NCBI GenBank assembly: GCA_964510885.1
Contig: CAZEDL010000004.1
Span: forward strand, 3,182 to 67,181
Source: an uncultured Gammaproteobacteria bacterium
GTDB lineage: Bacteria > Patescibacteriota > Patescibacteriia > Magasanikbacterales > GWA2-37-8
Reading direction: 5' to 3'
Length of the DNA stretch: 64,000 nt
A program made the position numbers and the translations under genes. A model generated the notes under the pieces. The model saw nothing but the letters and a program-made list of their open reading frames with translations. It ran no database searches and had not been told where the DNA came from. The number at the start of each line of letters is the position of its first letter. The stretch's first letter is position 1. Positions 10,125 through 63,369 of the stretch are shown here, piece by piece.

Positions 10125-10646
10125 TTATCTAACCGGCCCAGCACAGCATACAGTCGCCCCATCTGAGCGATCGGTACAGGAGCCGAGCGATATGGTTGAA
10201 TCTGAGCAATTTTGCGAACAGACCCCGCTATAATTTTGACATTGGGCTTCAGTTGTAATTGAAGCCTTCTCTGCCTCACCAGATCCTCCTGCGCTAAGTC
10301 GGCTGCCCACAAATGCCGTAATGGCATACGCCGACATTACGATCACGAGCCCAATTATCGCTGCCTTGATAATCTCTTTACCTTTCTCAATCTCACCCTC
10401 GTCACCGCGCGCGAGCATCCAGCGAATGCCACCATAAATAGTAAGCAGTAAAAAAATCGTACCGACCAACGATAATGCGGCAGTTACGATCGTCGCCACG
10501 GCAGGCGTCAATTCGCGCTGGAGCCCTGCCCGGCTACTCGGGCCAACCGCGCTATCAAGCTGATTTAAACCATTCTTGAACTGAGCCTGGGCAGACACTG
10601 GCACCAAAAGCATGATTGACAGCATTGCCCAAAAATATTTCTTCAT
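10125..10646 (-). CDS. TrbC/VirB2-like pilin-family protein, paralog 4, with Cys-rich C-terminal extension
   Basis: Core LLLTIYGGIRWMLARGDEGEIEKGKEIIKAAIIGLVIVMSAYAI. Tail QCQNYSGVCSQNCSDSTISLGSCTDRSDGATVCC has 7 Cys. Confidence 0.6.
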   Translation of the reverse strand: MKKYFWAMLSIMLLVPVSAQAQFKNGLNQLDSAVGPSSRAGLQRELTPAVATIVTAALSLVGTIFLLLTIYGGIRWMLARGDEGEIEKGKEIIKAAIIGLVIVMSAYAITAFVGSRLSAGGSGEAEKASITTEAQCQNYSGVCSQNCSDSTISLGSCTDRSDGATVCCAGPVR

Positions 10647-10668
10647 AGCCCTTTATTATTTGTCGTAA

Positions 10669-11100
10669 TTAAATACTAATCGTTTCAGGACCTGTAGGTT
10701 GAGTCACGGTATCGGTAGTAGTTGCCCCTAACCTATCAAACACAAACCGCGAAATCGCGTACGACGCCATCACTATCACAAGCCCAATCAAGGCAGCCTC
10801 CATGATATCTTTGGCTTTAGTGACAGCATCTGAATTGCCGCGAGCGAGCATCCAAGTGATCCCGGCATAAAAAATCAGAATAAAAAAGATTATTGCAAGC
10901 AGGCTTAAGAGTGCGGCCACTACTTTACCAATCAGCTGTGGCACATTGCCGGCCCCAGCTAACGTTTTTGGCACTAAACCACCCGTGGCTTTTTGAGTAT
11001 CGCCGAGGCCATATTTATCGCCATTGTCTGCCTGCACCATCGCCACCGAGACAAAGAGGGTAGCAAATAAAAATACCCCTGCCAAAAATATGCGTTGCAT
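10669..11100 (-). CDS. TrbC/VirB2-like pilin-family protein, paralog 5
   Basis: Signal peptide, then ILIFYAGITWMLARGNSDAVTKAKDIMEAALIGLVIVMASYAI. Confidence 0.6.
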   Translation of the reverse strand: MQRIFLAGVFLFATLFVSVAMVQADNGDKYGLGDTQKATGGLVPKTLAGAGNVPQLIGKVVAALLSLLAIIFFILIFYAGITWMLARGNSDAVTKAKDIMEAALIGLVIVMASYAISRFVFDRLGATTTDTVTQPTGPETISI

Positions 11101-11233
11101 AAGTCTTAATCACTAAAAAACTAGTAGGCAACTAATTATTGAAAGAGAGAAATAGTTAAAATAATTATTTTTCTCTACCAACAAAAGTACCGCGAAGGGG
11201 AGAGTTGAAACTCTCCCCCACGATACGTATACA

Positions 11234-11668
11234 CTAGACAGGTTGAGTCGTAGCGCTTACCAAGCTGCTTACCACAAAGTTGGCAATAGCGTATGCTGAC
11301 AAAATAATCGCCAAACCAATGATACCGCTGAAAATCATTTTCTTAGCTTCACCAACTTTATCATCATTTCCACCCGCGGTCATCCAGGTAAAACCACCAA
11401 TCAAAATGATTACAACTGCGACGATACCAAGGAGACCCATGAGCACCTTGATAATGCGAGCAATAGTGATACGGATGTCAGTACTGGTGAGGCCGGTGTT
11501 GGCTCCGTATTGGATACCCAAGTCACTTTCGTTAATTGGCTTTACTGGGCCGCTGATGCCTGGCACCTGGTCGCCACCCTGGGCGAACGTCGCCACTGGC
11601 ACCGCCATACTGCCGATCATCATAGCTCCCATCGCGAAGCTGACTAAGAACTGTTTGAATCGTGTCAT
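11234..11668 (-). CDS. TrbC/VirB2-like pilin-family protein, paralog 6
   Basis: Start placed at MTRFKQ, preceded by RBS GGAGGTGAAGAT. Core ILIGGFTWMTAGGNDDKVGEAKKMIFSGIIGLAIILSAYAI. Confidence 0.6.
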   Translation of the reverse strand: MTRFKQFLVSFAMGAMMIGSMAVPVATFAQGGDQVPGISGPVKPINESDLGIQYGANTGLTSTDIRITIARIIKVLMGLLGIVAVVIILIGGFTWMTAGGNDDKVGEAKKMIFSGIIGLAIILSAYAIANFVVSSLVSATTQPV

Positions 11669-11765
11669 ATCTTCACCTCCTTCCCAGTAGAAACAAATTG
11701 TTTCATATGTGATGTTACAAAATAAACTGATCTGACCCCAGTATAACATACTGGCGCGAAACTTG

Positions 11766-12206
11766 TCACGAACCTTTGCTGAGAAAAACCAAATACTGAT
11801 CGAGCAAGAAATAACTAGCCAAAACTAGACCTAAGCCAATGGCTGCCCAGAGCATAGTCATAGCACCGCTGTGGACACGGTCGGGATTACCAAACGACAA
11901 TAACCACGAAGCCCCCCCTTTAATAAATACGATAAGGGCCACCGACCCAACAATTCCGAGCGCACCCTTTATGACGATGCCGAGGATAGTAGTCACTTCA
12001 ACCGGTCTCGCCCCATTTGCGCCTGGCGCCAATGGATTTTCTAAACATTGACGGTCTTTAGGGCAATCCTTATTTGCACCTGGTGTCTCGTCGCTAGTTT
12101 GAGCAAACACCGGGGCGGCCAACAAACCAACAGCAAGTGTTGCTAACAGCACCAAGAGCATCCATCGTCTAGAAAACTGCTGTGCCAGAGAAATCATATT
12201 AAACAA
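11766..12206 (-). CDS. TrbC/VirB2-like pilin-family protein, paralog 7
   Basis: The N-terminal region carries CPKDRQC. Core FIKGGASWLLSFGNPDRVHSGAMTMLWAAIGLGLVLASYFL. Confidence 0.55.
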   Translation of the reverse strand: MFNMISLAQQFSRRWMLLVLLATLAVGLLAAPVFAQTSDETPGANKDCPKDRQCLENPLAPGANGARPVEVTTILGIVIKGALGIVGSVALIVFIKGGASWLLSFGNPDRVHSGAMTMLWAAIGLGLVLASYFLLDQYLVFLSKGS

Positions 12207-12222
12207 CTGATAAAGATAAAAA

Positions 12223-13305
12223 TTATGACGCGCCGGTCAGCAATTGAAACACAAATCCAACTAGTACATAGCTCGCTAAAATAGCCACCACCCCAAGACT
12301 CGTCCATACCACCATTCTCTGGGCCTGCTCCACGCGCTCAGAATTTCCAGCCGCAGTCATCCAGAGCACACCGGCAACAATATATAATACCAGCGTAACA
12401 CCTCCGAGAATGGCCAGCGGCACCGAAATCAACCACCCAATCAAAGCCGCCCCTAGTTTCGAAGAATTACTATACGAATTAAACCGGCTCATCTGATTAA
12501 GCTCGGCCACTTGGTCCTGAATATCTTTCAGTGAACCGGGAGCATCTTCATCCTCACCCTCTGCCGCAGTTTTTTCCGGCGCCGGGAGCTTGCTAAAATC
12601 CATCAATGCGTCACAATCACTAATTATTTTGCCGCCTTCTTCACGGTCTTTCACGTCATACGCCTTGAGCCCTTCGCCGCAAATGCGCAGAGCTGGATCT
12701 TTTTGATTACCATTAAAGCCTTTAACAAATTCCGAATTATAGCGGCGGCGCCAATCTACATGGCGTTCGCAATCAGAGGGTACACCATTAGGTTTATCCG
12801 ATGGTTTACAGCAGCAAAACGGCGGATTATTAGCTACAGCCGGCTTCATCGTGTACTTACTTTTCATCTCTTCAAGCAAATCATCTTCTTGTTTTTGCAC
12901 GACCCCTTCATATTTTTCTTTGGCAATTTTTTTGGATTCGACCGTACAGGTTTTCCCATCATAATTCAGAACCATTTTACCCCCCAAATAAAATAACCGA
13001 TTTGGATATTCATCAAAACGATAAAAACCTGCCCACGAGAACAGCGGGATATCGAACTTTTTTTTATAAACGTCAATTTTATACGTTTTGTTAACTTTAA
13101 AAAAACCCGGATTAATGCCGACCATTACTGTACAAACACCAAGACACTCCAGCGACTCAGGATCATTGCAGGCATCACCCATGCCAACCAACTCAGGGGC
13201 ATACAATTCTTCAAACTGCGCCGCTGAAGCCGCGACAGGAAGCAGCTGAATAGTAGCCGCAATAAGCATCAAAGCAATAGCGTGCCAGTTAAAAAATCTT
13301 CGCAT
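12223..13305 (-). CDS. Cys-rich extracytoplasmic domain fused to C-terminal TrbC/VirB2-like pilin module, paralog 8
   Basis: N-terminal domain of about 270 aa with roughly 12 Cys (CNDPESLECLGVC, PPFCCCKPSDKPNGVPSDCERH). C-terminal LVLYIVAGVLWMTAAGNSERVEQAQRMVVWTSLGVVAILASYVL. Confidence 0.55.
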   Translation of the reverse strand: MRRFFNWHAIALMLIAATIQLLPVAASAAQFEELYAPELVGMGDACNDPESLECLGVCTVMVGINPGFFKVNKTYKIDVYKKKFDIPLFSWAGFYRFDEYPNRLFYLGGKMVLNYDGKTCTVESKKIAKEKYEGVVQKQEDDLLEEMKSKYTMKPAVANNPPFCCCKPSDKPNGVPSDCERHVDWRRRYNSEFVKGFNGNQKDPALRICGEGLKAYDVKDREEGGKIISDCDALMDFSKLPAPEKTAAEGEDEDAPGSLKDIQDQVAELNQMSRFNSYSNSSKLGAALIGWLISVPLAILGGVTLVLYIVAGVLWMTAAGNSERVEQAQRMVVWTSLGVVAILASYVLVGFVFQLLTGAS

Positions 13306-13324
13306 AACACTAAATAAAAGCCAT

Positions 13325-14035
13325 TTATTTAAGGATAAACTCAGGATCAACACCAACAGCCGAGGCCAAAAACTTAATCAAAATATAACCACCAAACGCA
13401 ATCAATAGCCCAATCACCACCGCTACCAAAATATCTTTGGCCTGGGAAATTTTTTCTTCATTGCCTTGGGATAAAATCAATATAAAACCACCATACACAA
13501 ACATCACGAGCGATACTCCACCAATAATAGAAAATAAATACTGCGTAATTTTAATAGCCAGCGTAATAAAAATATTAACACTGCGACACTGGTCAGTTAA
13601 CTCATTTTGTAAAGCACAATCCGGAATTAATCGGCTGCGGATAATTGTCGATGGCTGACTAGCGCCCCCCTCAGCACCCTCGGTAGTGCCAAGCAACTCT
13701 TTAAGACGAGTGGTTTTTTCCTGCTCCCAACCTTTCAGCGCTGCCTGACAAATATCATCGGTCTGTGCATAGTTACAATCAAAAAATCGCTTACTAGTGG
13801 CGGTGTTGGAATTTTTTTCCTTCGTACAGTCGCTCTGAGCGGCCACCGTCGAACACTGAGCAATAAACTGAGCCTGGTCTTTCACCGTTTCAGCCGTCAA
13901 TTTAGTCAAATTTTCAAAACAAAAACAGCTGCCAGCTGCTACTGCCGCTGGAGCTGGGAAAAACAAACCACCGCAGCCAGCAGCAAATAATAATCCGAAT
14001 ATAAAGAGGCGAATCTGTGAAGCCATAGTCTTCAT
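13325..14035 (-). CDS. Cys-rich N-terminal domain fused to C-terminal TrbC/VirB2-like pilin module, paralog 9
   Basis: Signal peptide, then about 10 Cys (SCFCFENL, QCSTVAAQSDCTKEK, DCNYAQTDDICQ, DCALQNELTDQC). C-terminal LVMFVYGGFILILSQGNEEKISQAKDILVAVVIGLLIAFGGYIL. Confidence 0.55.
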   Translation of the reverse strand: MKTMASQIRLFIFGLLFAAGCGGLFFPAPAAVAAGSCFCFENLTKLTAETVKDQAQFIAQCSTVAAQSDCTKEKNSNTATSKRFFDCNYAQTDDICQAALKGWEQEKTTRLKELLGTTEGAEGGASQPSTIIRSRLIPDCALQNELTDQCRSVNIFITLAIKITQYLFSIIGGVSLVMFVYGGFILILSQGNEEKISQAKDILVAVVIGLLIAFGGYILIKFLASAVGVDPEFILK

Positions 14036-16454: not shown

Positions 16455-16555
16455 GATTAATGACGAAATCAGAATTACGAATGCTAAATCTATTATTCAT
16501 GCCGAAACTTTCAGAAAAACAATTCGTCATTCGAAATTCGGATTTCGTCATTTTC
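16455..16555. repeat. inverted pair of GTCATTCG-family repeat units (right flank of galU)
   Basis: 16458-16484 aatgacgaaatcagaattacgaatgc is the inverted partner of 16526-16552 gtcattcgaaattcggatttcgtcatt. Confidence 0.6.
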
Positions 16556-16773
16556 ACCGCACCTCCTCCCAACTGAGTATCGTGTAATCCCCGCCAACCG
16601 GGAATCCCGGCGGGGGGGCACAGGTCAGATTAGCATCATACGTAAGGGTAGTATTTTTATACCCGGAATCGATAAATCCATTAAAGTATACCATAATAGA
16701 GCCAAGACAGACAGAAACAAACTCGACTTTTCAAACAACCTAGTAAATGCTAAAGTGGGGCCAATCATAGCTT

Positions 16774-20226: not shown

Positions 20227-20441
20227 ATTGGTTTAACGTTGTCACCCCGAGCCCTAAACGGATTCTTTTGAAATAAGACTTTACAAAAAACGAAAGATCT
20301 TTATCCTGGTAATCGCTAACAATGTAACAATTTAGCAATATAACAGTTAACTTTTGAAACAAAAATTCCTCTTTTGACGTCGGAATGACAATTTAGAGAA
20401 ACATTGCCAACAAAAATAATCTCCGTTACAATACTAACATT

Positions 20442-37421: not shown

Positions 37422-37493
37422 GCCGCGGTAGCTCAGTGGTAGAGCGCAGCCCTGAAGAGGCTGGCGTCGTCAGTTCGATTCTGACCCGCGGCA
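37422..37493 (+). tRNA. tRNA-Phe (anticodon GAA)
   Basis: Acceptor GCCGCGG/CCGCGGC, anticodon loop CTGAAGA, T-loop GTTCGATTC. Confidence 0.85.
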
Positions 37494-37494
37494 C

Positions 37495-37620
37495 GCGCCC
37501 CCGAATCGAACGGGGAAGGCTTGGGAATCGGGAGGTTCCCACCTCTGCCGGGAAGAGCACACAAGAGGGCGGAAGCCCTTTGGTGAGAGGTTCTGATTCG
37601 CATCGGAACCAATTTTGCTT
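37495..37620 (+). other. tRNA-trailer conserved structured element, copy 2 (after tRNA-Phe)
   Basis: Begins GCGCCCCCGAATCGAAC, where GAATCGAAC is the reverse complement of the tRNA-Phe T-loop. Core GGGGAAGG-GGGAATC[GGGA]GGTTCCC-...-GGGC[GGAA]GCCC. It is followed at 37621-37634 by a duplicate of the tRNA 3' end CTGACCCGCGGCAC. Confidence 0.7.
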
Positions 37621-37820
37621 CTGACCCGCGGCACAAGACGAGTGAGTTGATTGTAATTAGGGAGTGCAATTAGTAGTTTGGATAAAATAAAAGAGCGGAT
37701 TCACATTCCTCTGTCCAAATTATTAACTACTAAATACAAACTACTCAATTACGGGGTATACTATGGTATATCCCTCAACGCTCGGAAAACCCAAATAAAT
37801 TTGGTTTTTCCTCACTAATT

Positions 37821-39765: not shown

Positions 39766-39800
39766 TTGTCATTCCCGCGTAGGCGGGAATCCAGACAATT
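39766..39800. repeat. GTCATTCCCGCG-family palindromic hairpin (single arm) in the nrdA-nrdB intergenic spacer
   Basis: TTGTCATTCCCGCGTAGGCGGGAATCCAGACAA. Confidence 0.65.
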
Positions 39801-43693: not shown

Positions 43694-43771
43694 AAACAGT
43701 CTCTAAACCTAAAAATAAAGCCCCCTAAAAATAACATAAAAGACTAGAGAGAGCAATCGTTAAGGAAATTT

Positions 43772-43893
43772 GAGCTTGGTGAAAAACTGTCATTCTGAGT
43801 GAAACGAAGAATCCCTTAACGCTAACTTCAGTAGCAATGTTGACTATAAGGGATCCTTCGCTCCGCTAAGGATGATAGGTTACCGTGATTTTT
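43772..43893. repeat. MITE-like palindromic element (TGTCATTCTGAGTGAAACG family) with perfect 15-bp outer terminal inverted repeats (TIRs)
   Basis: Outer TIR GAGCTTGGTGAAAAA/TTTTTCACCAAGCTC. Inner CTGTCATTCTGAGTGAAACGAAGAATCCCTTAACGCTAAC...TATAAGGGATCC. Confidence 0.75.
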
Positions 43894-43975
43894 CACCAAG
43901 CTCAGGCAATTTACAGATCGCTATTTTTATATTACGTTATAGTTAGTCAAAAATTTATAAAGACTAACCTTTTTT

Positions 43976-44620
43976 ATGAATGATTTTAAAACCAGAGATC
44001 AACTGGCAGTCGCCGCTAGTGGAGCTGGCCAAGAACACGACCCTGAAGAGATGAGCCCGCTTGAAAAACAGCTCTACGGCAAAACTCTAGCTGAAATTCA
44101 AAACGCCCTAGGGCCAGCCGGAAGTATTGGTAAAAATGAAATTTTTGTCGAAACGTATGGGGCAAACGGCAAATTTGAAGCCGCCATCCTGGCGATTGCC
44201 GAAGCGGTGGCTGCCAAAAAACAAGGGCTAGTTCCCGGACCAAAATTTGTGAGCCAATTTTCTGAGCTCGACCTCGAATTTCGTGAAGTGATTGGCGAGG
44301 CCCTGGTTCAGGAACTCGACAATGATCAAATTCTCGAGGGGAAAAACCTAGCCGAACTAACCGACGCCCTCCTGAAGCTTAACGCTCTGCAAAAAGCCCT
44401 GCCTGCTTCCAGAAAGATGCTAAACCAAGGCACGCCGATTGACTTCAAATTCCTACTCGAAAATTACGTAAGAAATATTCCTGGTCTAAAAGCTGAAATC
44501 TCTAATCAAGACCACCTAAACAACATGGCCTACTCGCATCTCCCCCAAATCTTTGGTCTCCGATCTGCCGCCGAAAATCTCGCAGCAGACACTGCCATAT
44601 CTCTTGATAAAGCAGCCTAA
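43976..44620 (+). CDS. hypothetical protein
   Basis: 214-aa ORF. I recognised no domain. Confidence 0.45.
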   Translation: MNDFKTRDQLAVAASGAGQEHDPEEMSPLEKQLYGKTLAEIQNALGPAGSIGKNEIFVETYGANGKFEAAILAIAEAVAAKKQGLVPGPKFVSQFSELDLEFREVIGEALVQELDNDQILEGKNLAELTDALLKLNALQKALPASRKMLNQGTPIDFKFLLENYVRNIPGLKAEISNQDHLNNMAYSHLPQIFGLRSAAENLAADTAISLDKAA

Positions 44621-44683
44621 GAAAAGGCAACAAAAAAACAAGCTTAATAAGAAGCTTGTTTTTTTGTATACGAGTTATCTGTG

Positions 44684-44700
44684 TGGACCAATGGGGACTC
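44684..44700 (-). repeat. 17-nt direct duplicate of the tRNA-Ala 3' end (distal to the element)
   Basis: TGGACCAATGGGGACTC is identical to 44810-44826. Confidence 0.7.
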
Positions 44701-44809
44701 TCAGTCGCTACGCTCCCACAAAAGGGCTTCCGCCCTCTCGTGCGCTCTCCTCAAAAAAGGTGGAAACCTCTCGATTTCCAAACCTTCCCCGTTCGAGTCC
44801 ATATACTAG
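44701..44809 (-). other. tRNA-trailer conserved structured element, copy 3 (after tRNA-Ala, minus strand)
   Basis: Minus-strand sequence: CTAGTATATGGACTCGAACGGGGAAGGTTTGGAAATC[GAGA]GGTTTCCACC...GGGC[GGAA]GCCCTTTTGTGGGAGCGTAGCGACTGA. GGACTCGAAC is the reverse complement of the tRNA-Ala T-loop. Confidence 0.7.
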
Positions 44810-44882
44810 TGGACCAATGGGGACTCGAACCCCAAACCTTCGCCTTGCAAAGGCGTTGCTCTACCAATTGAGCTATTGGCCC
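44810..44882 (-). tRNA. tRNA-Ala (anticodon TGC) with G3:U70
   Basis: Reverse complement GGGCCAA...ACGCC-TTTGCAA-GGCGA...GGTTCGAGTCC...TTGGTCC-A. The G3:U70 wobble is the Ala identity element. Confidence 0.85.
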
Positions 44883-44956
44883 GTCAATTTATACGGACAC
44901 ATCGTACCAGGTCGTACCATAAAAGTCAATCTAGTGGTATAATTAAGCCAGACTTC

Positions 44957-45463
44957 ATGGCGGCACAAAACTTTTCATATATGGACCCCATCTTTCTTAA
45001 CACCGAGCTGTGCTACCTCGGCCAAATTTTCCTTGCTCTCGTACTCGGCAGTTTTCTTGGCTGGCAACGCGACCGCTCCGGTAAACCAGCCGGCATTCGC
45101 ACCTACGCGCTAGTAGCAGCCGGCTCTGCCTTTTTCACCTTATTGTCCCTGTATGCCTTTGGCACTGACAGCCCGAGCCGAGTCGCCGCACAAATTCTCG
45201 TCGGTATTGGTTTTATTGGTGCCGGCACCATTTTGCATAAAGCCGATCATATCGAAGGACTCACCACGGCCGCCGGCCTCTGGATCGCCGCCGCCATCGG
45301 CATGGGTGTAGCGGCTGGTTGGTACCTGCTCTCTACCACTACCACCCTCCTCGTTTTTATCTACCTACTCATCGATGAAAAAAAATGGTTCGTGAAAACC
45401 ACTAATACTTCCCTACCAATCAAATCTAACCGTTCAAAAAAAACTAATGAAAAAACGGGTTAA
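44957..45463 (+). CDS. MgtC/SapB-family membrane protein
   Basis: LVLGSFLGWQRDRSGKPAGIRTYALVAAGSA...GIGFIGAGTIL...AAGLWIAAAIGMG. Confidence 0.7.
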   Translation: MAAQNFSYMDPIFLNTELCYLGQIFLALVLGSFLGWQRDRSGKPAGIRTYALVAAGSAFFTLLSLYAFGTDSPSRVAAQILVGIGFIGAGTILHKADHIEGLTTAAGLWIAAAIGMGVAAGWYLLSTTTTLLVFIYLLIDEKKWFVKTTNTSLPIKSNRSKKTNEKTG

Positions 45464-45477
45464 CGACCCGTTTTTTA
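45450..45477 (+). terminator. intrinsic terminator overlapping the MgtC stop codon
   Basis: AAAAAACGGGT-TAACG-ACCCGTTTTTT. Confidence 0.65.
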
Positions 45478-45611
45478 TTTTTACAATACCCGCAGTATTT
45501 CACCCGCTGAATTGCACTTTTCATGAAAATGACAACAGCCACTCAACAGCCTGACGCCATTTTCTTCCAGTGCATCGGCCGCTTCATTATTTTTTAAAAT
45601 ACACTATCAAA

Positions 45612-46112
45612 TTACTGCTTCAACCAATACGCCAAGAGTGCCAGAAACCCCGTATACAAAAAATGTATATGCCAGCGCTTTAATAGATTCAAAAAATACA
45701 ATGCCACTACCAACGGTAACGCCACGACCACCAAGGGATTATGCCAAAACCGCCGCCCAGTCGCCCGCCACAGCGCTTCAGCATCACCCGTAGAAGGAAT
45801 CGCATGCAATCCAATCGCAATCGCGAGCCACCCATACACCGCCGTATGATAATCCACATACGGCATTTTTATGCCAGCGAACAGCACCATGGCCACGATA
45901 GTATTCACAATCAACGGGCCGAACGACACCAAGATGTGCTGATAAAAATACTGCGGATCGTCATGCCGCACATACCCAGCCACCTGGCCGAATTGAAATA
46001 ATTTTATTTTGTGGATCTTGACCCCAGAAAGCCAACAAAACAAAGCATGGCCAAGCTCGTGCATGGCCACTCCCGGTGCCGTGATAAGGGCGTATAAATA
46101 GGCAAAAAACAT
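45612..46112 (-). CDS. membrane-embedded HExxH zinc-metalloprotease-like protein
   Basis: VAMHELGHALFCWLSG with 4-5 TM helices (DUF3267/M50-like). Confidence 0.5.
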   Translation of the reverse strand: MFFAYLYALITAPGVAMHELGHALFCWLSGVKIHKIKLFQFGQVAGYVRHDDPQYFYQHILVSFGPLIVNTIVAMVLFAGIKMPYVDYHTAVYGWLAIAIGLHAIPSTGDAEALWRATGRRFWHNPLVVVALPLVVALYFLNLLKRWHIHFLYTGFLALLAYWLKQ

Positions 46113-46150: not shown

Positions 46151-46257
46151 TGTCATTCCCGCGCAGCAGCGGGAATCCACAATCAAAATGTTCAATTTAT
46201 AATTTGTAATTATTGAACAGTACAGTGCTGGATTCCCGATCTTGGTCAGGAATGACA
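46151..46257. repeat. GTCATTCCCGCG-family palindromic MITE-like element
   Basis: TTGTCATTCCCGCGCAGCAGCGGGAATCCA ... TGGATTCCCGATCTTGGTCAGGAATGACA. Confidence 0.75.
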
Positions 46258-47609: not shown

Positions 47610-47713
47610 ATAGATAAAGTTGCTTAACTATAACAAAAGACTAGAAATTGGTCTATAAAAATCACAATAAAACAGGTAATTAATATCAGAGCTAGGCGAA
47701 AAATCACCCCCAC

Positions 47714-47842
47714 CTGTCATCCTGAGCGGAGCGAGGGATCCCTTACAGCCAATCTCCCTGGTGAAGTTAGCATTAAGGTATTTTCCTTAAGGTGGCCCTT
47801 TAGGGTTCGTTTCACTTAGAATGACAGTTTTTCACCAAGGTC
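47714..47842. repeat. MITE-like palindromic element (TGTCATCCTGAGC...GAATGACAG) with right outer TTTTTCACCAAGGTC
   Basis: Internal GGGATCCCTTACAGCC...TTAAGG...GGGTTCGTTTCACTTAGAATGACAG is the reverse-complement partner of the 43787 copy. Confidence 0.7.
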
Positions 47843-47915
47843 TTAATATATCACTTGGATTGACGAAAAGGTCGTAAATTCAGTATTATGCAAGCAAGTT
47901 AAAAGGAGACAAACC

Positions 47916-48944
47916 ATGCCTAAGCGTCATTTTCTCCTGGCTTCACCTACCATGTTGGAGACCGCTCTGGAAACCCAGCAGTCACTGATTGCCATGGGCG
48001 ACGAGCGTTTCGAAGTCGCAGAAATCGAATGTGCAACATTCACCGATCGTGAAAGATGGGTCCGGGTCCCAAAAGGTCTACAACTATCGACTGCCGTACC
48101 CATACTTGAGAGCTGTACTGACCCCAATGCAGACCTGTGGCAACAGCTCTTCACGATAGATGCACTAGAAGGTGCCGGGGTCAGCCACACCATCCTGTGC
48201 ACACCTAAACTAGTTTACGACCGAGCTGACCGAGTCGCGAACCCAGGGGAAGCTCTCAGCATGGCAGTGGTAGCCGGATGCTTCAAGCAGTTCCGAACCC
48301 TACGATCCATCGTATGCGTAGAGCCGCACGCCCTACAGATCGCCGGTTTCTACCGCCCCATCACACTTGTGCCTGTGAAGAGCTCCGATATCATGGCTCG
48401 GTACTTCACGGAGTTATTAGGGGGCGACCTAAACCAGGTTGCAGTCGTGTCCCCTGACGCAGGCGCGCTCAAGCGGGCCAGAAAATTCAGGAACCGCCTG
48501 AAGCTGCGCACTGCTGTAGGGAGTTTGGACAAAGATCGTATCGATGCCACCACTGTGGTGATCCTCGGCTACTCCGGCGACCCAAAAGACATCATGGGCA
48601 AAATCGTCATCCTCTATGACGACATGATCGCGAGTGGGAGCACTGCCATCGAAGCAGCCCAATACCTGATGGAGCTTGGAGCTCGTCAGGTCTACATCGT
48701 GGCTACCCACGGCATCTTCACTCCAAGTCAACGCAAAGACGAGGAGAGACTCTACACCGCCGAAGAACGATTTGAAGCAGCAGGCTTCCCTGTGGTCTTC
48801 ACCAGGACTGTCCCCAAAAAGGAAGGCTGGTATGCAGCGAACCGATGGGCAACAGCACTCCCCATCGGCCAACTTCTAGCCAAAAACATTCACAATATGA
48901 CCACTCCTGGCGGAAGCAACCGCGAAAACTTCGCAGCCCACTAG
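47916..48944 (+). CDS. prs: ribose-phosphate pyrophosphokinase-like (PRPP synthetase family), divergent
   Basis: PRPP-binding loop VILYDDMIASGSTAIEAA and N-terminal Prs-like R5P region (TIDALEGAGVSHTILCTPKLVYDRADR). Visibly GC-richer. Confidence 0.55.
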   Translation: MPKRHFLLASPTMLETALETQQSLIAMGDERFEVAEIECATFTDRERWVRVPKGLQLSTAVPILESCTDPNADLWQQLFTIDALEGAGVSHTILCTPKLVYDRADRVANPGEALSMAVVAGCFKQFRTLRSIVCVEPHALQIAGFYRPITLVPVKSSDIMARYFTELLGGDLNQVAVVSPDAGALKRARKFRNRLKLRTAVGSLDKDRIDATTVVILGYSGDPKDIMGKIVILYDDMIASGSTAIEAAQYLMELGARQVYIVATHGIFTPSQRKDEERLYTAEERFEAAGFPVVFTRTVPKKEGWYAANRWATALPIGQLLAKNIHNMTTPGGSNRENFAAH

Positions 48945-49000
48945 CCCCAGCTCATTCCCCCGGTCGAGCCTCCGTCCCCTCCCACCCCTCGACCAAAACC

Positions 49001-49031
49001 AAAAACACTCCGAATGATTCGGAGTGTTTTT
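49001..49031. terminator. bidirectional intrinsic terminator
   Basis: AAAAACACTCCGAA-TGA-TTCGGAGTGTTTTT. Confidence 0.7.
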
Positions 49032-49045
49032 GTATTCTAACAAAA

Positions 49046-49603
49046 TTATTTTAACCGACCGTGTCTAACCATATACGCCAAGCGCACCACCGCATACGCG
49101 ATAAAATTATTCTCTATTTCTCCTTCAAGAGCCATTTTTTCTGCCTGCTTTATCGGTACAAACCGCCTCTCCAAAATTTCTTCCCCGACATCAAGTGGCA
49201 ACGGGCTCAGCGACAAATCCGTCGCCAAAAAAAGATACACCGGCCAAATCATTTTATCCGAATCCACCGCCTGTTTCCATTGCACCCATTTTTTGGCAGC
49301 ATAGCCCCCTTCTTCGCGGAGCTCACGTTGCGCCGCCTTGCGTGGCAGCTCCTTTTTTTCTACCTGACCAGCGGGTAAAAACCACTCTATCTTTCCATTC
49401 CCAGCGCGACGCTCTCGAATCAATAACAACTCTTGCTTAGTGTTCAGCGCCAAAATGAGCACGCTCGCCGGCCGACTGCAATATTCAAACGTGTCCTTTT
49501 TTCCATTCGGCAACACCACCGGCCGCTGATAAATTGTAAAAATTTTTCCCTGGTACTTTTTCTGTAGTGACCCAAATTTAATTTTTTTAACCATAAAAAT
49601 CAA
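49046..49603 (-). CDS. NUDIX hydrolase
   Basis: Nudix box AGQVEKKELPRKAAQRELREEGG. Confidence 0.7.
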   Translation of the reverse strand: MIFMVKKIKFGSLQKKYQGKIFTIYQRPVVLPNGKKDTFEYCSRPASVLILALNTKQELLLIRERRAGNGKIEWFLPAGQVEKKELPRKAAQRELREEGGYAAKKWVQWKQAVDSDKMIWPVYLFLATDLSLSPLPLDVGEEILERRFVPIKQAEKMALEGEIENNFIAYAVVRLAYMVRHGRLK

Positions 49604-49691
49604 ATTGTCATTCCCGCGTAGGCGGGAATCTACAATTCAAAACGAGAAGTAAAGCGACTGGATTCCCGCCTACGCGGGAATGACACCAATT
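49603..49691. repeat. GTCATTCCCGCG-family palindromic MITE-like element (near-perfect 25-bp TIRs)
   Basis: TGTCATTCCCGCGTAGGCGGGAATC ... GGATTCCCGCCTACGCGGGAATGACA. Confidence 0.8.
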
Positions 49692-52812: not shown

Positions 52813-52897
52813 GTGTCATTCCCGCGCAGGCGGGAATCCAGAAAAGCAAGGCCGGGGTTAAAAGTGACCGTGGATTCCCGCCTGCGCGGGAATGACA
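52813..52897. repeat. GTCATTCCCGCG-family palindromic MITE-like element
   Basis: GTGTCATTCCCGCGCAGGCGGGAATCCA ... TGGATTCCCGCCTGCGCGGGAATGACA. Confidence 0.8.
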
Positions 52898-54662: not shown

Positions 54663-55439
54663 CTAAAAAATAAACCACCAAAGTGCCAGCGCCGCCACTA
54701 TCCGATAGATTCCAAACACTTGAAACGAATGACTGCGCACATACCTCAAAAGCCACTTCACCACCCCGAGAGCTACTACAAATGACACTATAAATCCCAC
54801 TGCCAAGACCAATCGCCCCTCAGGAACCAACAGCTCTTTATAATTTTTAATCACATCAAGGCCGCTTGCCGCCGCCATCGTCGGAATTGCGAGTAAAAAA
54901 GAAAATTCCACCGCTGACTCCCGACTAAATCCAAGTGCCATCGACCCCACAATCGTGGCCCCCGAACGCGACACCCCCGGAATCATTGCTACTGCCTGGC
55001 TAAGGCCAATAATCACTGCCTGCCGATAACTCATCTCGCCAAGCGACTTGGGGGCAACCTCCTGCTTCCGTACCAGCCGCTCAAAAACGATTAATACCAC
55101 GCCCCCGATAGCCAAAGCGCCAATCACCACCGCCACATTTCCGAGTAAGTACTGTTTAATTATTTTATAAAACAAGAGACCCAGTGCCCCCGTTGGTAAA
55201 AATGCGACCGCCACTTTTTTTAACAACGGCCAATCAACCAAGAGGCGTCGCGCATACAACACCACGATCGCCAAAATCGCACCCAGCTGGATCACCACCT
55301 CAAAGCTCTTCATGAATTCCGAATTCGGCAGCTTGAGTAGCGCTCCGGCAGCAATCAAATGTCCAGTCGAGGAGATCGGCAAAAATTCCGTCACTCCTTC
55401 TATTATCCCCAAAACTACTGCCTGAAAAATAGATGGCAT
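54663..55439 (-). CDS. uppP: undecaprenyl-diphosphatase
   Basis: AVVLGIIEGVTEFLPISSTGHL and 8 TM helices. Confidence 0.85.
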   Translation of the reverse strand: MPSIFQAVVLGIIEGVTEFLPISSTGHLIAAGALLKLPNSEFMKSFEVVIQLGAILAIVVLYARRLLVDWPLLKKVAVAFLPTGALGLLFYKIIKQYLLGNVAVVIGALAIGGVVLIVFERLVRKQEVAPKSLGEMSYRQAVIIGLSQAVAMIPGVSRSGATIVGSMALGFSRESAVEFSFLLAIPTMAAASGLDVIKNYKELLVPEGRLVLAVGFIVSFVVALGVVKWLLRYVRSHSFQVFGIYRIVAALALWWFIF

Positions 55440-55485
55440 ATTTAAAAATTTTATAAACTTCTTAGTCCCGATGGACTTAGTCAAA

Positions 55486-55631
55486 ACTTACGCGCTTGGG
55501 ACAATTGTCATCCTGAACGTAGTGAAGGATCCCTTAACGCTAACTTATTACTACTGTTAACTATAAGGGATTCCCCCAAAGGGACGGCTCCGGGGTTCGT
55601 TTCACTCAGAATAACAGTTGAACGGGTAAGT
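55486..55631. repeat. MITE-like palindromic element (TGTCATCCTGAACGTAGTGAAGG family) with outer AACTTACGCG/CGGGTAAGT TIRs
   Basis: TGTCATCCTGAACGTAGTGAAGGATCCCTTAACGCTAAC...TATAAGGGATTCCC...GGGTTCGTTTCACTCAGAATAACAG. Confidence 0.7.
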
Positions 55632-55645
55632 CGTGTTAGTAAAAA

Positions 55646-56257
55646 CTACTTATTCAAAATCTTCTCCTCTTTCCGTGCGATCAAAATCGCCGCCACCGCC
55701 ACTATCAATCCCAAAAACAAGACTTGCAGCGTCCCCGTCAAATGCCGCGCCCGCTCCCACGCCTGCCCAAAAAAATAACCAAACAAAATATAGGTCGGCG
55801 CAAACAGCAGCGCACTCGTTATATTATACAAAAAAAATTCCCGGCTGCGCATCTTGGTAAGCCCGGCCACAAACGGAATCACCGGCCGGAGCGGCCCGAT
55901 AAACCGGGCCAGCACCACACTCTTGTTACCATTCCGTTCAAAAAATCGCACCCCTTTATCGAGATATTCTAGCTTAAACCAACGGCTACCCGGCGTAAAC
56001 CACACTGTCCCCTGGCGGCCCAAATAAAAGCTAATCGCATCCCCAATCACGCTCCCGATAATAACCGGGATCATCAAATCCACCACTCCCACCCGGCCCT
56101 GAGCTGCAAAAATTCCGACCACAATAATAATGGTAGTACCCGGTACAAACAAGCCAATAAATGCCAACGACTCCAAGATTGAAACAAAAAACAACAGGCC
56201 GTAAATCCACGGGCCGGCCTGTTGAAAAGTAGTCAGTAAAAAATGAATCGGACGCAT
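55646..56257 (-). CDS. DedA/SNARE-associated family membrane protein
   Basis: FFERNGNKSVVLARFIGPLRPVIPFVAGLTKMR. Confidence 0.8.
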   Translation of the reverse strand: MRPIHFLLTTFQQAGPWIYGLLFFVSILESLAFIGLFVPGTTIIIVVGIFAAQGRVGVVDLMIPVIIGSVIGDAISFYLGRQGTVWFTPGSRWFKLEYLDKGVRFFERNGNKSVVLARFIGPLRPVIPFVAGLTKMRSREFFLYNITSALLFAPTYILFGYFFGQAWERARHLTGTLQVLFLGLIVAVAAILIARKEEKILNK

Positions 56258-56283
56258 AGGCTACGGTGTCGGCACAATTACCG

Positions 56284-56838
56284 CTACCGCTCACTTCTAT
56301 TAAAACGTTCCTGCAACCAGCGAAACAACCCCTGGTATTGTTCATCATGTGGTACTAGGCTCTCATCTCGGTCACCAACTAATCGAGCCAATTCTTCATG
56401 ATGCACAAACCGCACCGCCGCCACTTCGTCGGCCTGAAGCACACATGCTTCAATCGGTGTATCTATTTCTGCCGCATACACGTGGGCCAATTCCCGGGCC
56501 GGATGCAGACGATCAGGAAACGGAAAAATCTCTTTGGTAGTAAATAAAAAGGTAAACGCGTCTTCTGGCACATCAAGGCCAATCTCTTCGAGAGTCTCCT
56601 GCCGGGCGGTAGCCAGAGGCGTCGCCCCAGCCACCACATGCCCCGCACTCGAGCTATTCCACTTCAGCGGATTACCATCTTTATGCACCGAACGCTGCTG
56701 AATTAGCACCTCACCGTGCCGGTTAAACAACCATACATCCACAGTCAGATGCCAATCACCATCGCGATGCACCTCATGACGCGGTTTTACCTCTCCCGTT
56801 GGGTTCCCCGCTTCATCACACACTTCTAGATATTCCAT
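56284..56838 (-). CDS. NUDIX hydrolase (candidate dihydroneopterin-triphosphate pyrophosphatase by context)
   Basis: Nudix box GHVVAGATPLATARQETLEEIGL. Divergently adjacent to the folate cluster. Confidence 0.6.
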   Translation of the reverse strand: MEYLEVCDEAGNPTGEVKPRHEVHRDGDWHLTVDVWLFNRHGEVLIQQRSVHKDGNPLKWNSSSAGHVVAGATPLATARQETLEEIGLDVPEDAFTFLFTTKEIFPFPDRLHPARELAHVYAAEIDTPIEACVLQADEVAAVRFVHHEELARLVGDRDESLVPHDEQYQGLFRWLQERFNRSER

Positions 56839-56987
56839 ACCATTATACTCGACGTTCCGGAGCGTAAATAAAAATAACGCTAGACATTTTTTAACGTTAT
56901 CACACCCGCACCTAGAATACTAGTCAAGCGCTTGTCAGAGATACCTAAATAAGCTATATTTCCGCTTGTAATTCTTAGCCTTTTTCT

Positions 56988-57674
56988 ATGCAAAATAGCG
57001 ATCTCGTCACCAGACTACAATCCCTCATTGCCGACAAACACCTGCTCCAGCACCCCTTCTATCAGCACTGGGAAAAAGGCACTCTCCCCAAAGAAGTACT
57101 GGCCAAATATGCCGAACAATATTACCACTTAGAACGCAACTTCCCCCGCTTCCTCAGCCAGATCCACACCAACTGCGATGACCCAGCCCTCCGCCAGACC
57201 ATTACCGACAATCTATACGACGAAGAGCATGGCCAGAATAACCACCGCGAGCTCTGGCTGCGCTTTGCCGAGGCCGTGGGTGCATCCCGGGCAGAAGTAG
57301 AAAATTCTGTTCCGCTGCCAGAAACGGAGGCCACCCTCCACACTTTCACCACGCTTAGCCAAACGTCATCTTTGGCCGGCATCTCTGGCCTCGCTGCCTA
57401 CGAACACCAGATTCCAGCTGTCGCCACCAAAAAAATCGAGGGCTTAGAAAAAAATTACGGTATTACCGATGATCGCGGGCTAGCCTTCTTTCGAGTACAT
57501 GGCATAGTTGATGTCGATCATGCCAATGCCTGGTGGGACGCGATCGCTAAAGACGCCACCACTCCGGAACAAGCCGCGGAAGCAGAGCAGAGCGTGATCA
57601 CTGGACGCGATGCCCTGTGGAATTTTTTAACCGGTGTCTGCCGCGCCTATTTCCCACAAGCTTTGGCTTGTTAA
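56988..57674 (+). CDS. CADD/PqqC/TenA-like haem-oxygenase-like di-iron protein (candidate self-sacrificing pABA synthase)
   Basis: All-alpha 228 aa with E..H pairs (EEHGQNNHRELW, AAYEHQIP, HGIVDVDHANAWWD). Lies directly upstream of folP, as CADD-type pABA synthases do. Confidence 0.55.
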   Translation: MQNSDLVTRLQSLIADKHLLQHPFYQHWEKGTLPKEVLAKYAEQYYHLERNFPRFLSQIHTNCDDPALRQTITDNLYDEEHGQNNHRELWLRFAEAVGASRAEVENSVPLPETEATLHTFTTLSQTSSLAGISGLAAYEHQIPAVATKKIEGLEKNYGITDDRGLAFFRVHGIVDVDHANAWWDAIAKDATTPEQAAEAEQSVITGRDALWNFLTGVCRAYFPQALAC

Positions 57675-57695
57675 GAGCTTGAAGAGCTATACAGC

Positions 57696-57750
57696 TGTCA
57701 TTCTCGCGCATCCGCCTCCGCCATTTGGCGGATGGCGGAGGGAATCCAGC
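57696..57750. repeat. GTCATTC-family palindromic hairpin element
   Basis: TGTCATTCTCGCGCATCCGCCTCCGCCA-TT-TGGCGGATGGCGGAGGGAATCC. Confidence 0.65.
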
Positions 57751-57779
57751 AATCACCATAGACGTCGAAACTAAAAAAC

Positions 57780-58586
57780 ATGGACTTCTCTCCAAAAAAA
57801 ACCCAAATCATGGGGGTGCTCAACGTCACCCCCGATTCTTTTTTTGATGGCGGACAGTGGCACGGTGATCTCGATCGAACCCTCGCCCATGCTGAAGAAT
57901 TGATTGCCGCTGGCGCCGATTACCTAGATATCGGCGGCGAAAGCTCACGCCCCGGCGCCACTCCAGTCCCGGAAGACGAAGAATTACAGCGCGTAATTCC
58001 GCTTATTGAGAAGCTCAGGGCCATATCGCACGTTCCTATTTCTATCGACACCTATAAACCAAGGGTGGCCAAAGCCGCATTGGCGGCAGGAGCTAGCATC
58101 ATCAACGACATCACTGGCCTCACCGATCCAGCCATGCGCAAAGTAGCTGCTGAATATAACGCCCCGGTGATTATCATGCACATGCTCGGTCGCCCGCAAA
58201 CCATGCAACAAAACCCTACCTATACCGATGTCGTGGCCGACATCTCGCACTTCTTTACTACCCAAATTAAACTGGCTACAGTCGCCGGCATTACCAACAT
58301 TATCCTCGATCCCGGGCTCGGCTTTGGCAAAACCCTTGAGCACAACCTAACGATTATAAAACGCCTGCACGAATTCACCGCTCTTGGCTATCCTGTTCTC
58401 ATTGGCCCCTCACGTAAATCATTCATTGGCACAGTAACTGGCAACCTCCCACCGGCAGAGCGTCTTGAAGGCACCATCGCCGCTGCGGTTATGAGCGCAT
58501 TAAACGGCGCTAATATTATTAGGGTCCATGATGTAAAAGAATGCAAACGAGCACTGCAGGTTGCGGATGCGGTAAAAAATTATTAA
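57780..58586 (+). CDS. folP: dihydropteroate synthase
   Basis: IMGVLNVTPDSFFDGG ... DIGGESSRPGA ... DPGLGFGK. Confidence 0.9.
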   Translation: MDFSPKKTQIMGVLNVTPDSFFDGGQWHGDLDRTLAHAEELIAAGADYLDIGGESSRPGATPVPEDEELQRVIPLIEKLRAISHVPISIDTYKPRVAKAALAAGASIINDITGLTDPAMRKVAAEYNAPVIIMHMLGRPQTMQQNPTYTDVVADISHFFTTQIKLATVAGITNIILDPGLGFGKTLEHNLTIIKRLHEFTALGYPVLIGPSRKSFIGTVTGNLPPAERLEGTIAAAVMSALNGANIIRVHDVKECKRALQVADAVKNY

Positions 58587-58590
58587 TACC

Positions 58591-58686
58591 TGCCATCCTG
58601 AACGAAGGCTCACGCGGCAGTGAAGGACCCCCTGGTATTAACCTTACTCTTGCTACGAGGGGGGTCCCTCGTATCTCGGGATGACA
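58591..58686. repeat. MITE-like palindromic element (TGCCATCCTGAACGAAGG...CGGGATGACA)
   Basis: Imperfect TIRs, central GGACCCCCTGG...GGGGGGTCC. It occupies the folP-folB spacer and creates a spurious N-terminal extension on the folB ORF. Confidence 0.7.
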
Positions 58687-58694
58687 AAAAACCT

Positions 58695-59048
58695 ATGGAC
58701 AAAATAATTCTCTCTGACTGTCACTTTCTCGCCTGCATTGGCGTCACCACCGCAGAACGGGGAGCCCCCCAACCAATCAGCATCGATCTCGAACTGAATT
58801 TCGACACCCGCCTCGCTGGCCAGTCTGATTCATTATCTGATACTATCAACTATAGTGCTATTCATAGCACACTGCAGGCATATATCACCTCTCATTCATT
58901 TCAACTGATCGAGGCGCTGGCCGAACATCTAGCGACAGAGGTGATTGCCAGCTTCCCTATCAAACAACTAACACTGCGCCTCAAAAAACCCGGCGCACTG
59001 AATAAAAAAGGCGGCGCCTACGCGGCCGTCGAAATCACTCGTCCTTAA
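58695..59048 (+). CDS. folB: dihydroneopterin aldolase
   Basis: MDKIILSDCHFLACIGVTTAERGAPQPISIDLEL. T-fold of about 118 aa. Confidence 0.75.
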   Translation: MDKIILSDCHFLACIGVTTAERGAPQPISIDLELNFDTRLAGQSDSLSDTINYSAIHSTLQAYITSHSFQLIEALAEHLATEVIASFPIKQLTLRLKKPGALNKKGGAYAAVEITRP

Positions 59049-59062
59049 TAGTTACCTTACGT

Positions 59063-60157
59063 ATGAAAAAAACCCTCCTCGCACTCAGCGCACTTTTGAT
59101 TTTAACCGGGCAAGGCTGCACTCTGTCCGGCATCGATTCTGCCAGCAGCACACCCGTTGGATCTGTCGCACCAGCCAGTGAACCAGATCAACATGTCGAC
59201 CTATCGCGGCTCGATGGTAGCAACGGCCTGTTCCGTTTTTTTGCCACACTGCCAGCAGGATGGCATGCCGAATATTCAAGTGACGCAAAAGCTCTGTTGA
59301 TTTACGATCATATAAATCCGCAGGCAAAGTACACTCAAGATGAAGCGATTATTTTTATTAACACCTTCACAGCCAAATCATTTCTTACTCTAACCACTGT
59401 CGACATTACCAAACGCTCCCCCACCACCATTGCTGGGCGTAGCGCCATGATCTACGAAATTACCAAAAAATCTACGGCGCCTGCATTCGCCAATCAGCCA
59501 GCCTGGCGAAATGAAAAACATGAAGTTACCGATATTCGCTTTACCAAAAACAATCCCAGTATTTTTTACGTCATTGCCCGCAATCCGAAATTATCCGTCG
59601 ACACCTTTGGCACTATTCTAAACTCATTGCAATTTCATAATGACCCAGCTACCTTTGTGCCCCCACTGCCAGATGCCAAAGCCCGCCTCACCAAAAAACC
59701 GTTCGGCATCCTGATCAATAAACAAACCTCTCCTGTCGTGCCCGAACGATTCTCCGGCTACCACACCGCTGTTGATTTTGAAATCCTTGATAAACACGAA
59801 TTTGTGACTCGTATACCAGTCGCTGCAGTGTGCGGCGGGCCAGTAAAAAAGAAAGAAGCGAAAGCCGGATACGGTGGCGTATTGATACAAGAATGCATGA
59901 TCAATGATCAACCTATCACAGTAATCTACGGCCATTTATCCTGGTCAAAAACCAAAGTGAAAGCCGGCGACTACCTCTCGCCCGGCGAAGAATTCACAAC
60001 CCTTGGCGAATCACCCAAAGAAACCGACAGCGAACGCAAGCATCTACACCTCGGCTTCCATAAAGGCACGGCGATTGAATACCGGGGATATGTAGCGACG
60101 AAGTCTGCTCTGTCTGCTTGGCTTGATCCGTGCGCGTATAACGTCTGCGGACAATAA
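59063..60157 (+). CDS. M23-family metallopeptidase lipoprotein
   Basis: Lipobox LTGQGC. C-terminal HTAVDF ... YGHLS ... HLHLGFH as in LytM-type M23 peptidases. Confidence 0.75.
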   Translation: MKKTLLALSALLILTGQGCTLSGIDSASSTPVGSVAPASEPDQHVDLSRLDGSNGLFRFFATLPAGWHAEYSSDAKALLIYDHINPQAKYTQDEAIIFINTFTAKSFLTLTTVDITKRSPTTIAGRSAMIYEITKKSTAPAFANQPAWRNEKHEVTDIRFTKNNPSIFYVIARNPKLSVDTFGTILNSLQFHNDPATFVPPLPDAKARLTKKPFGILINKQTSPVVPERFSGYHTAVDFEILDKHEFVTRIPVAAVCGGPVKKKEAKAGYGGVLIQECMINDQPITVIYGHLSWSKTKVKAGDYLSPGEEFTTLGESPKETDSERKHLHLGFHKGTAIEYRGYVATKSALSAWLDPCAYNVCGQ

Positions 60158-63265: not shown

Positions 63266-63369
63266 ATGACTTACGCGCCATGACTTTTCCCTGAACGGGT
63301 TCGGCCAATAAATGGCCGCCCTGAGGCCTCGCGGGCGAGGAGAGTGAAGGGAAATGTCATGGCGCGTAA
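63266..63369. repeat. MITE-like palindromic element with 26-bp TIRs (TTACGCGCCATGACTTTTCCCT)
   Basis: TTACGCGCCATGACTTTTCCCTGAACGGG...GTGAAGGGAAATGTCATGGCGCGTAA. Shares the CCTGAACG/GTGAAGG core with the 55486 and 58591 copies. Confidence 0.75.

Follow-up and report, generated by a model that had tools for sequence, protein, structure and literature searches.

The Neisseria Transformation Sequence (NTS), CGTCATTCCCGCGMAVGCGGGAATCYRG, encompasses the 20-bp dRS3 repeat ATTCCC N8 GGGAAT, and a degenerate 'Ssn-related motif' (SRM) has been formulated as HGTCWYN(0-2)YYVSBRHN(0-5)WNVSBRGN(0-2)RNCYNB (PMC11893778). The enzyme associated with these motifs is SsnA, a GIY-YIG protein of 94 amino acids (aa), which binds and cuts the motif as single-stranded DNA (ssDNA) only and on one strand (PMC11893778, Nat Commun 2025). 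Cutting needs three bases 5' of the palindrome whilst binding needs a C directly 3' of it, and strand-specific cleavage by Ssn is documented by data from Neisseria and Wolbachia (PMC11893778). Here we describe a family of intergenic hairpin repeats in a 64-kb stretch of contig CAZEDL010000004.1 (the whole stretch analysed, hereafter the window), in which a first-pass annotation had flagged the copy at 49606–49685. One of the two classes of this family, type A, is, judged by its sequence, the Neisseria dRS3/NTS repeat, i.e. an Ssn-related motif.

Between 39.7 and 63.4 kb the window holds 16 hairpins built as TGTC-AT[stem-loop]AT-C, plus one atypical palindrome. The 16 units are arranged as nine intergenic elements, two of them singlets in + orientation (at 39767 and 57696) and seven of them head-out inverted dimers (TGTCAT...ATGACA), and the repeat elements occupy 999 nucleotides (nt) in total. 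Units are oriented, with the basic hairpin reading 5' TGTC-AT[stem-loop]AT-C(C), and both of the sub-types proposed in the first-pass annotation were recovered. Type A (GTCATTCCCGCGYAGGCGGGAATC) has the layout GTC-ATTCCCGC-GYAG-GCGGGAAT-C, and type B (GTCATYCTGAGYGRARCGARGRATC), for which alignment of the units gave the consensus GTC-ATCCT-GA-GC-GAA-GC-GA-AGGAT-CCC, has the same GTC...C frame. The GTC and the 3' C are kept in all eight type A units; among the eight type B units, GTC is kept in five and the C after the hairpin in all. Three type B dimers bear a further outer inverted pair (GAGCTTGGTGAAAAA) in differing states of decay. Loops and stems drift within the window, and one stem has been changed on both sides and is still paired. 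Folds of the type A elements as ssDNA are far stronger than those of shuffles (z -4 to -11); two of the type B dimers (B2 and B3, see below) no longer exceed shuffles (z -0.7), and the family therefore holds both young and old copies.

Exact matches to GTCATTCCCGCGNAGGCGGGAATC were found five times, at 39768(+), 49607(+), 49684(-), 52815(+) and 52896(-), where 0 are expected from 100 dinucleotide-preserving shuffles. Site reading and a structure-aware scan added three degenerate type A units, at 46151(+), 46257(-) and 57696(+), which have indels or a compensated stem. For TGTCATYCTGARYG, the start of type B, there are 10 matches with two mismatches or fewer against 2.15 expected; seven of these are the type B arms at 43788/43877, 47715/47826, 55506/55616 and 58591, and an eighth arm, at 58686(-), was picked up by a scan for TGTCATYC, which itself occurs 16 times against 2.9 expected. 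No further copies were found at 1–39 kb of the window with the exact pattern, the SRM pattern or the structure-aware scan. A loose scan for GTCAT plus any hairpin gave 18 matches against 15 in shuffles, i.e. background about equal to signal, and its matches were taken as real only where the stem has 7–8 pairs. The sequences that the first-pass annotation had described were present at all ten of its listed positions, and the arms that it had reported as near-perfect over 25 bp in the copies at 49603 and 52813 are perfect arms of 25 nt (49606–49630/49661–49685) and 27 nt (52814–52840/52871–52897), 100% complementary by an inverted-repeat finder. Terminal inverted repeats had been attributed to every copy, which is true of the seven dimers but not of the copies at 39766 and 57696, which are single hairpins. 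A hairpin at 16590–16620 had been counted as a relative; it has no GTCAT...ATC frame and is a non-member.

The assignment of type A rests on several matches. The SRM pattern is found five times in the window where shuffles give 0.27, and the five sites are exactly the intact type A units; its background is three weak matches in 933 kb of unrelated metagenome loci. All five intact units contain the dRS3 core ATTCCC N8 GGGAAT, within (C/T)GTCATTCCCGCG.AGGCGGGAATCYRG, and they share with the Neisseria repeats the hairpin, the 5' GTC and 3' C, an intergenic position and clustering. Measured against the NTS consensus, one unit has one mismatch, three have two and one has three (positions 1, 14, 28); because the consensus allows one at most, type A is NTS-like rather than a strict Neisseria NTS. 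The window units also differ from the NTS in starting with T, not C; a loop T that the consensus excludes is found in three of the five. The SRM pattern misses type B and the three degenerate type A units, and the window differs from the SRM class also in having no ssn gene within its 64 kb and in its host, since Patescibacteria (Candidate Phyla Radiation, CPR) go unmentioned in PMC11893778. The family had been put forward as a novel one, a claim that falls with the match of type A to the known dRS3/NTS/SRM family. A more distant likeness is to WsnRNA46 (Wolbachia small RNA 46; Rfam RF02625), to which the flagged copy aligns over the full model with 48.8 bits, below the gathering score of 65.3. 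The two have in common the layout TGTCAT-hairpin-ATCCAG ... CTGGAT-hairpin-ATGACA, but the stem sequence differs. The Neisseria Correia elements (CREE) are likewise small intergenic palindromic repeats, found in the genus where dRS3/NTS was first described, but they are unrelated in sequence; the Correia inverted repeat is matched at best with 10 mismatches over 28 nt, and identity with these elements was rejected.

Scanning species-representative genomes for the type A 25-mer TGTCATTCCCGCGYAGGCGGGAATC returned at least 120 stretches, from Proteobacteria, Planctomycetota, Chloroflexota, Bacteroidota, Cyanobacteria, Rickettsiales, Legionella and a Neisseria; among the matches listed are 15 Patescibacteria loci and one metagenome-assembled genome (MAG) labelled Nanoarchaeota. 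In five of the 120 listed loci (L004, L016, L089, L108 and L115) an Ssn-like open reading frame (ORF) abuts the motif, and all-against-all ORF clustering of these 120 loci identified Ssn as the only recurrent small family adjoining it, the larger clusters being ATP-binding cassette (ABC) ATPases and short-chain dehydrogenases/reductases (SDRs) at arbitrary distances from the motif. A better profile revealed a sixth type A cassette, L122. In seven loci, six of type A and one of type B, units directly flank an Ssn-like GIY-YIG gene of 93–101 aa, and all three of the ORFs scanned (L004, L108 and L272) match GIY-YIG PF01541. The order is unit (forward), 5–50 nt, ssn, 5–40 nt, unit (reverse), i.e. 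the unit-ssn-unit layout around a ~95-aa GIY-YIG gene that links these repeats to the SRM class. Neighbouring units at most 600 nt apart form 56 pairs (54 from the 120 listed loci and the window's own two dimers), 38 of which are head-out (+-) and six of which fall in each other orientation; the spacers of head-out pairs measure 18–75 nt and are unconserved. The window dimers at 49606–49685 and 52814–52897 have the exact ends and orientation of the cassette with ~30 nt instead of the gene, and therefore look gene-less. The 15 CPR loci contain no Ssn ORF, even at E <= 1, and a PDB sequence search with the Ssn protein gave only spurious WD40 matches.

No paper on the type B strings was found in a literature search. 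A type B scan of viral contigs returned 83 stretches, and in one locus, L272, an Ssn-like GIY-YIG gene is preceded at a distance of ~55 nt by a type B unit and followed closely by a type B dimer. Classes A and B are each seen beside an Ssn-like gene of their own in other genomes, and on the layout of this one locus type B is best read as the motif of a putative second Ssn specificity class.

The closest named homologues of the PNPase and NrdA encoded in the window come from Candidatus Magasanikbacteria and 'Patescibacteria group', at 72–77% identity. An array of six paralogous small T4SS_pilin (PF18895) genes at 9090–14035 likewise suggests a Patescibacteria host. An origin of the window in Neisseriaceae was considered and rejected, Neisseria DNA uptake sequences being absent. 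A relative with a 90% identical NrdA, L286 (GCA_964585245.1), runs collinear with the window between the VTT gene and nrdB, and it has no TGTCATYC over 14 kb in which the window has seven elements. The orthologous nrdA-nrdB spacer has in the window a ~40-nt insertion that holds the singlet A1, and the VTT-BacA spacer is ~200 nt long with the dimer B3 in the window as against 10 nt in L286; the dimer B2 and the adjacent phosphoribosyl pyrophosphate (PRPP)-synthetase-like gene are absent from L286. Two further relatives (80–81% NrdA identity) are also without elements. The first-pass annotation had suggested that presence or absence be compared among related genomes, and these spacers give filled and empty sites of that kind. 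Because all seven elements are missing from the 14 kb compared in the syntenic L286, the comparison indicates that the elements were gained recently, after the split from the relative with 90% identical NrdA, and the earlier description of recently spread, non-autonomous REP/REPIN-like structured repeats agrees with it.

At the same junctions as repeats there are also small gene-content indels between the window and L286, at 43905–45650 and 47610–49045. The PRPP-synthetase-like gene and a 214-aa ORF are found only in the window, and ORFs of 101, 125 and 68 aa only in L286. These indels recall the variable regions bounded by dRS3 in Neisseria.

The elements are probably non-autonomous copies of dRS3/NTS (SRM) hairpin repeats, for which an Ssn-linked mechanism is proposed. 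The unit hairpin would form in DNA that becomes single-stranded as it is replicated or taken up; an Ssn nuclease whose gene lies outside the window would then bind the hairpin and cut one strand, and the same Ssn or another single-strand-specific enzyme would copy units into intergenic spacers, any effects on flanking operons being secondary. Several points weigh against this explanation. What has been demonstrated for Ssn is cutting and not transposition, and mobility is offered only as a hypothesis (PMC11893778), whilst another group assigns a REP-associated tyrosine transposase (RAYT) as mobiliser of the identical Neisseria sequence (bioRxiv 10.1101/2021.07.10.451892). Type B fails the SRM pattern, and its Ssn link comes from the single locus L272. 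Profile and homology searches found no Ssn/GIY-YIG homologue within the 64-kb window, the Ssn cassettes seen all lie in genomes not labelled as Patescibacteria, and no Patescibacteria names occur among the best 120 of at least 8000 Ssn homologues.

A bolder version, which we regard as possible though doubtful, takes the unit-ssn-unit cassette as an autonomous ssDNA mobile element with the ~95-aa GIY-YIG protein as its 'transposase'; the head-out dimers would then be derivatives resembling miniature inverted-repeat transposable elements (MITEs) that are invading a ~1-Mb CPR genome. There are parallels in IS200/IS605 and its gene-less derivatives (palindrome-associated transposable elements, PATEs), whose subterminal hairpins are recognised in single-stranded form, whose gene-less copies retain only the ends of the autonomous unit and which make no target-site duplications. 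The difference is that the window contains no TnpA/TnpB and that the GIY-YIG partner belongs to a class without demonstrated transposition activity. If GIY-YIG transposition were true, the filled and empty sites of the window and GCA_964585245.1 would reveal the target and the mechanism of a new transposition chemistry. By analogy with SsnA in Neisseria, it is also a possibility that Ssn and the motifs police incoming single-stranded DNA in this lineage. Neither the target-site duplications nor the DDE-transposase parents of classical MITEs are seen here. The first-pass annotation had called the repeats MITE-like, but no flanking direct duplication of 2–10 nt was found at the nine type A and B elements, although the dimer termini are inverted; the atypical palindrome at 63271–63369 has a flanking match of only 2 nt, consistent with chance.

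It is also conceivable, though we think it unlikely, that the elements are REPINs moved by a RAYT (an IS200/IS605-like Y1 HUH enzyme) encoded elsewhere in the genome, and that the association with Ssn is incidental or secondary. The repeats resemble REPIN-RAYT systems and the REP/BIME (repetitive extragenic palindrome/bacterial interspersed mosaic element) sequences of E. coli in that short palindromic units form singlets and inverted doublets, in many intergenic copies that persist vertically and are non-autonomous. The 21-mer ATTCCCGCGCAGGCGGGAATC is reported as the master REPIN sequence of Neisseria, where it goes with a Group 2 RAYT (bioRxiv 10.1101/2021.07.10.451892), and type A units with loop C contain it. 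Inverted dimers less than 130 nt apart together with singlets (seven and two in the window) are the pattern of REPINs and REP singlets, and the lack of target-site duplications is as expected for single-strand 'peel and paste' elements. However, the gene enclosed by head-out units is always a GIY-YIG nuclease and not a Y1 HUH transposase, and in the 120 listed loci ORF clustering, which involved no direct Y1_Tnp profile scan, found no recurrent motif-adjacent family but Ssn. The ORFs of the 64-kb window that were scanned against Pfam include no Y1/RAYT, IS110 or other transposase gene. The first-pass annotation had anticipated an IS200/IS605 TnpA or a RAYT as the partner; in other genomes the only small family that recurrently abuts the motif is instead a GIY-YIG Ssn-like nuclease.

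Rather less probable still is the explanation that the repeats are cis-acting RNA structures (attenuators, terminators, mRNA stabilisers or small RNA (sRNA) precursors) selected for regulation, with their spread incidental. Most copies do lie between co-directional genes (nrdA-nrdB, folP-folB, AdoHcyase-NUDIX and VTT-BacA), and the flagged copy has the sub-threshold match to WsnRNA46 described above. Nevertheless, L286 keeps the same gene order without any element, B2 and B3 fold no better than shuffles, and the identical 25-mer recurs beside unrelated genes in many phyla, which speaks against an origin in the regulation of particular genes. A terminator role had been suggested for the hairpins and does not hold for type A, which has no T-tract; none of its eight units was flagged by a terminator scan of 39–58.9 kb, separate, conventional terminator-like hairpins lie nearby, and the same operons in L286 are without units. 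A primary RNA-regulatory role is weakly supported. It is very improbable that the copies are retained as attachment or target sites of a site-specific recombinase (IS110/Piv-type, of filamentous prophages), for although dRS3 in Neisseria is, as cited in PMC11893778, an integration target of filamentous prophages with an IS110/Piv-type enzyme, no IS110/Piv-type gene, prophage or integrated element adjoins any window copy, and such a role explains the use of the sites but not the origin or multiplication of the repeats.

The repeat family and its partner enzyme were already known; what is new is the CPR host, the second motif class and the clean filled and empty sites. The window extends the SRM class to Patescibacteria, which the defining RefSeq-genome study did not cover, and type B supplies a hairpin that the published pattern misses and that yet brackets an Ssn-like gene (L272). 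Pairs of filled and empty sites record gain over a short evolutionary distance and bear on whether Ssn, RAYT or another enzyme mobilises the repeats. For annotation, blocks of 28–160 nt of this kind are Ssn-related hairpin repeats and not new MITEs, sRNAs or terminators, and they push gene callers to wrong starts, as in folB and BacA.

The five type A elements are A1 to A5. A1 (39767–39794, + strand) is a single unit, TGTCATTCCCGCGTAGGCGGGAATCCAG, in the nrdA-nrdB spacer, where the first-pass annotation had correctly placed a copy; it matches both the exact pattern and the SRM pattern and as ssDNA folds into a hairpin at -10.7 kcal/mol (z -5.0). A2 (46151–46257), between M50-like and Wzy_C genes, is a decayed dimer recognised from its inverted repeat, by site reading and by the structure-aware scan. 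Its left unit has a loop longer by 2 nt, its right unit has the stem ATTCCTGA/TCGGGAAT, in which both sides have changed and pairing is kept, and the fold has a z of -5.9. A3 (49606–49685), the flagged copy, lies between NUDIX and S-adenosylhomocysteine (AdoHcy) hydrolase genes and is a head-out dimer with its 25-nt perfect arms separated by 30 nt (-32.2 kcal/mol, z -10.2). A4 (52814–52897) is a head-out dimer with 27-nt perfect arms upstream of a PfkB kinase gene; it has a fold of -38.7 kcal/mol (z -11.3), and its left unit is one mismatch from the published NTS consensus. A5 (57696–57749, + strand) is a single unit in the TenA-folP spacer, its loop expanded by an inner hairpin (TGTCATTCTC...GGGAATCCAG), with a fold of -17.9 kcal/mol (z -3.9).

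All four type B elements are dimers. B1 (43771–43904; units 43788+ and 43877-) lies between uppS (-) and a divergent ORF, folds at -30.2 kcal/mol (z -6.7) and has the outer inverted pair TGAGCTTGGTGAAAAA; this pair had been reported as 15 bp at 43772/43893 and is indeed perfect, but it is a 16-mer, at 43771–43786/43889–43904. B2 (47689–47843; units 47715+ and 47826-) has decayed outer arms, GAGCTAGGCGAAAAA and TTTTTCACCAAGGTC, and a right unit with a ~22-nt internal insertion; since the whole element folds no better than shuffles (z -0.7), it is an old copy. B3 (55475–55636; units 55506+ and 55616-) has decayed outer flanks, and its right unit carries the same ~22-nt insertion as B2, so the composite element was copied in one piece. 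B4 (58591–58686), in the folP-folB spacer as the first-pass annotation had it, is a diverged dimer (TGCCATCCTGAACG..., right unit TGTCATCCCGAG...) with a fold z of -2.6. The copy reported at 63266 corresponds to a palindrome at 63271–63369, but an atypical one, in which GTCAT stands 3' of the hairpin; it has in common with B3 both CCCTGAACG...AGTGAAGGG and the flank CTTACGCGC, and it folds at -36 kcal/mol (z -8.5). It is possibly related to type B, its membership being uncertain. An independent Logan assembly of SRR16481186 (L001) reproduces 55023–59530 at 100% identity, with three of the elements, among them B3.

Two longest-ORF starts run into repeat elements. For folB this is GTG 58620 (span 58620–58694), which is also called on the Logan contig, and for BacA it is TTG 55484 (span 55440–55484). 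Pfam matches and alignment to L286 favour ATG 58695 for folB and ATG 55439 for BacA. ATG 58695 is thus the likely start of folB and B4 is therefore intergenic; with both starts corrected, the earlier statement that all copies are intergenic holds.

Some observations concern the Ssn cassettes and the wider spread of the motifs. The 933-kb background control consisted of loci from a metagenome scan with the AdoHcy hydrolase, whose best match was 83% identical and none of which was syntenic; L122 came incidentally from this set. At 8088–8440 of L122, metK is followed by a type A unit with the loop GCGGAGGC, then by ssn and by a reverse unit of another sequence, GGATCCCCGGGC...GAGGATGACA; the SRM pattern misses the L122 unit because of one loop base. 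The idea that L122 carries a full cassette at the same locus as the window was dropped, the PfkB encoded beside its ssn cassette being only 27% identical to that of the window. Many of the Ssn homologues P0241–P0360 are on contigs of 500–1500 bp, as expected if assemblies break at flanking repeats. The MAG labelled Nanoarchaeota (L007) has units of both kinds, exact type A and type B-like, at 1511–1582 and 2731–2754, which point to either an archaeal host or a mis-binned contig. Translations of the repeats recur as peptides: in L016 type A read forward gives VIPAQAGIQ, and in L018 another repeat gives DSRLRGND. These strings look like spurious 'proteins', and nothing relevant to the peptides IPAQAGIQ and SRLRGND was found in the literature.

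The window has other repeated features. A separate palindromic element at 16459–16552 has 25-nt arms that are 92% complementary (AATGACGAAATC...GATTTCGTCATT) and an ssDNA fold z of -4.9; its frame is unlike that of types A and B, and the 12-mer AATGACGAAATC occurs three times in the window. Runs of a repeat with an 8-nt period (AACAATTTAGCAAT...), with inverted copies, are found in two intergenic regions (3457–3549 and 20318–20348) and may be operator or promoter arrays. A structured element of ~80 nt follows tRNA-His (7740–7883) and, 87% identical, tRNA-Phe (37495–37634), and each is in turn followed by a duplicate of the tRNA 3' end (7722–7765 = 7840–7883; 37474–37494 = 37614–37634). This element has two conserved hairpins, is not matched by any Rfam family and is absent from every fetched locus; it looks like a small insertion that targets tRNA 3' ends.

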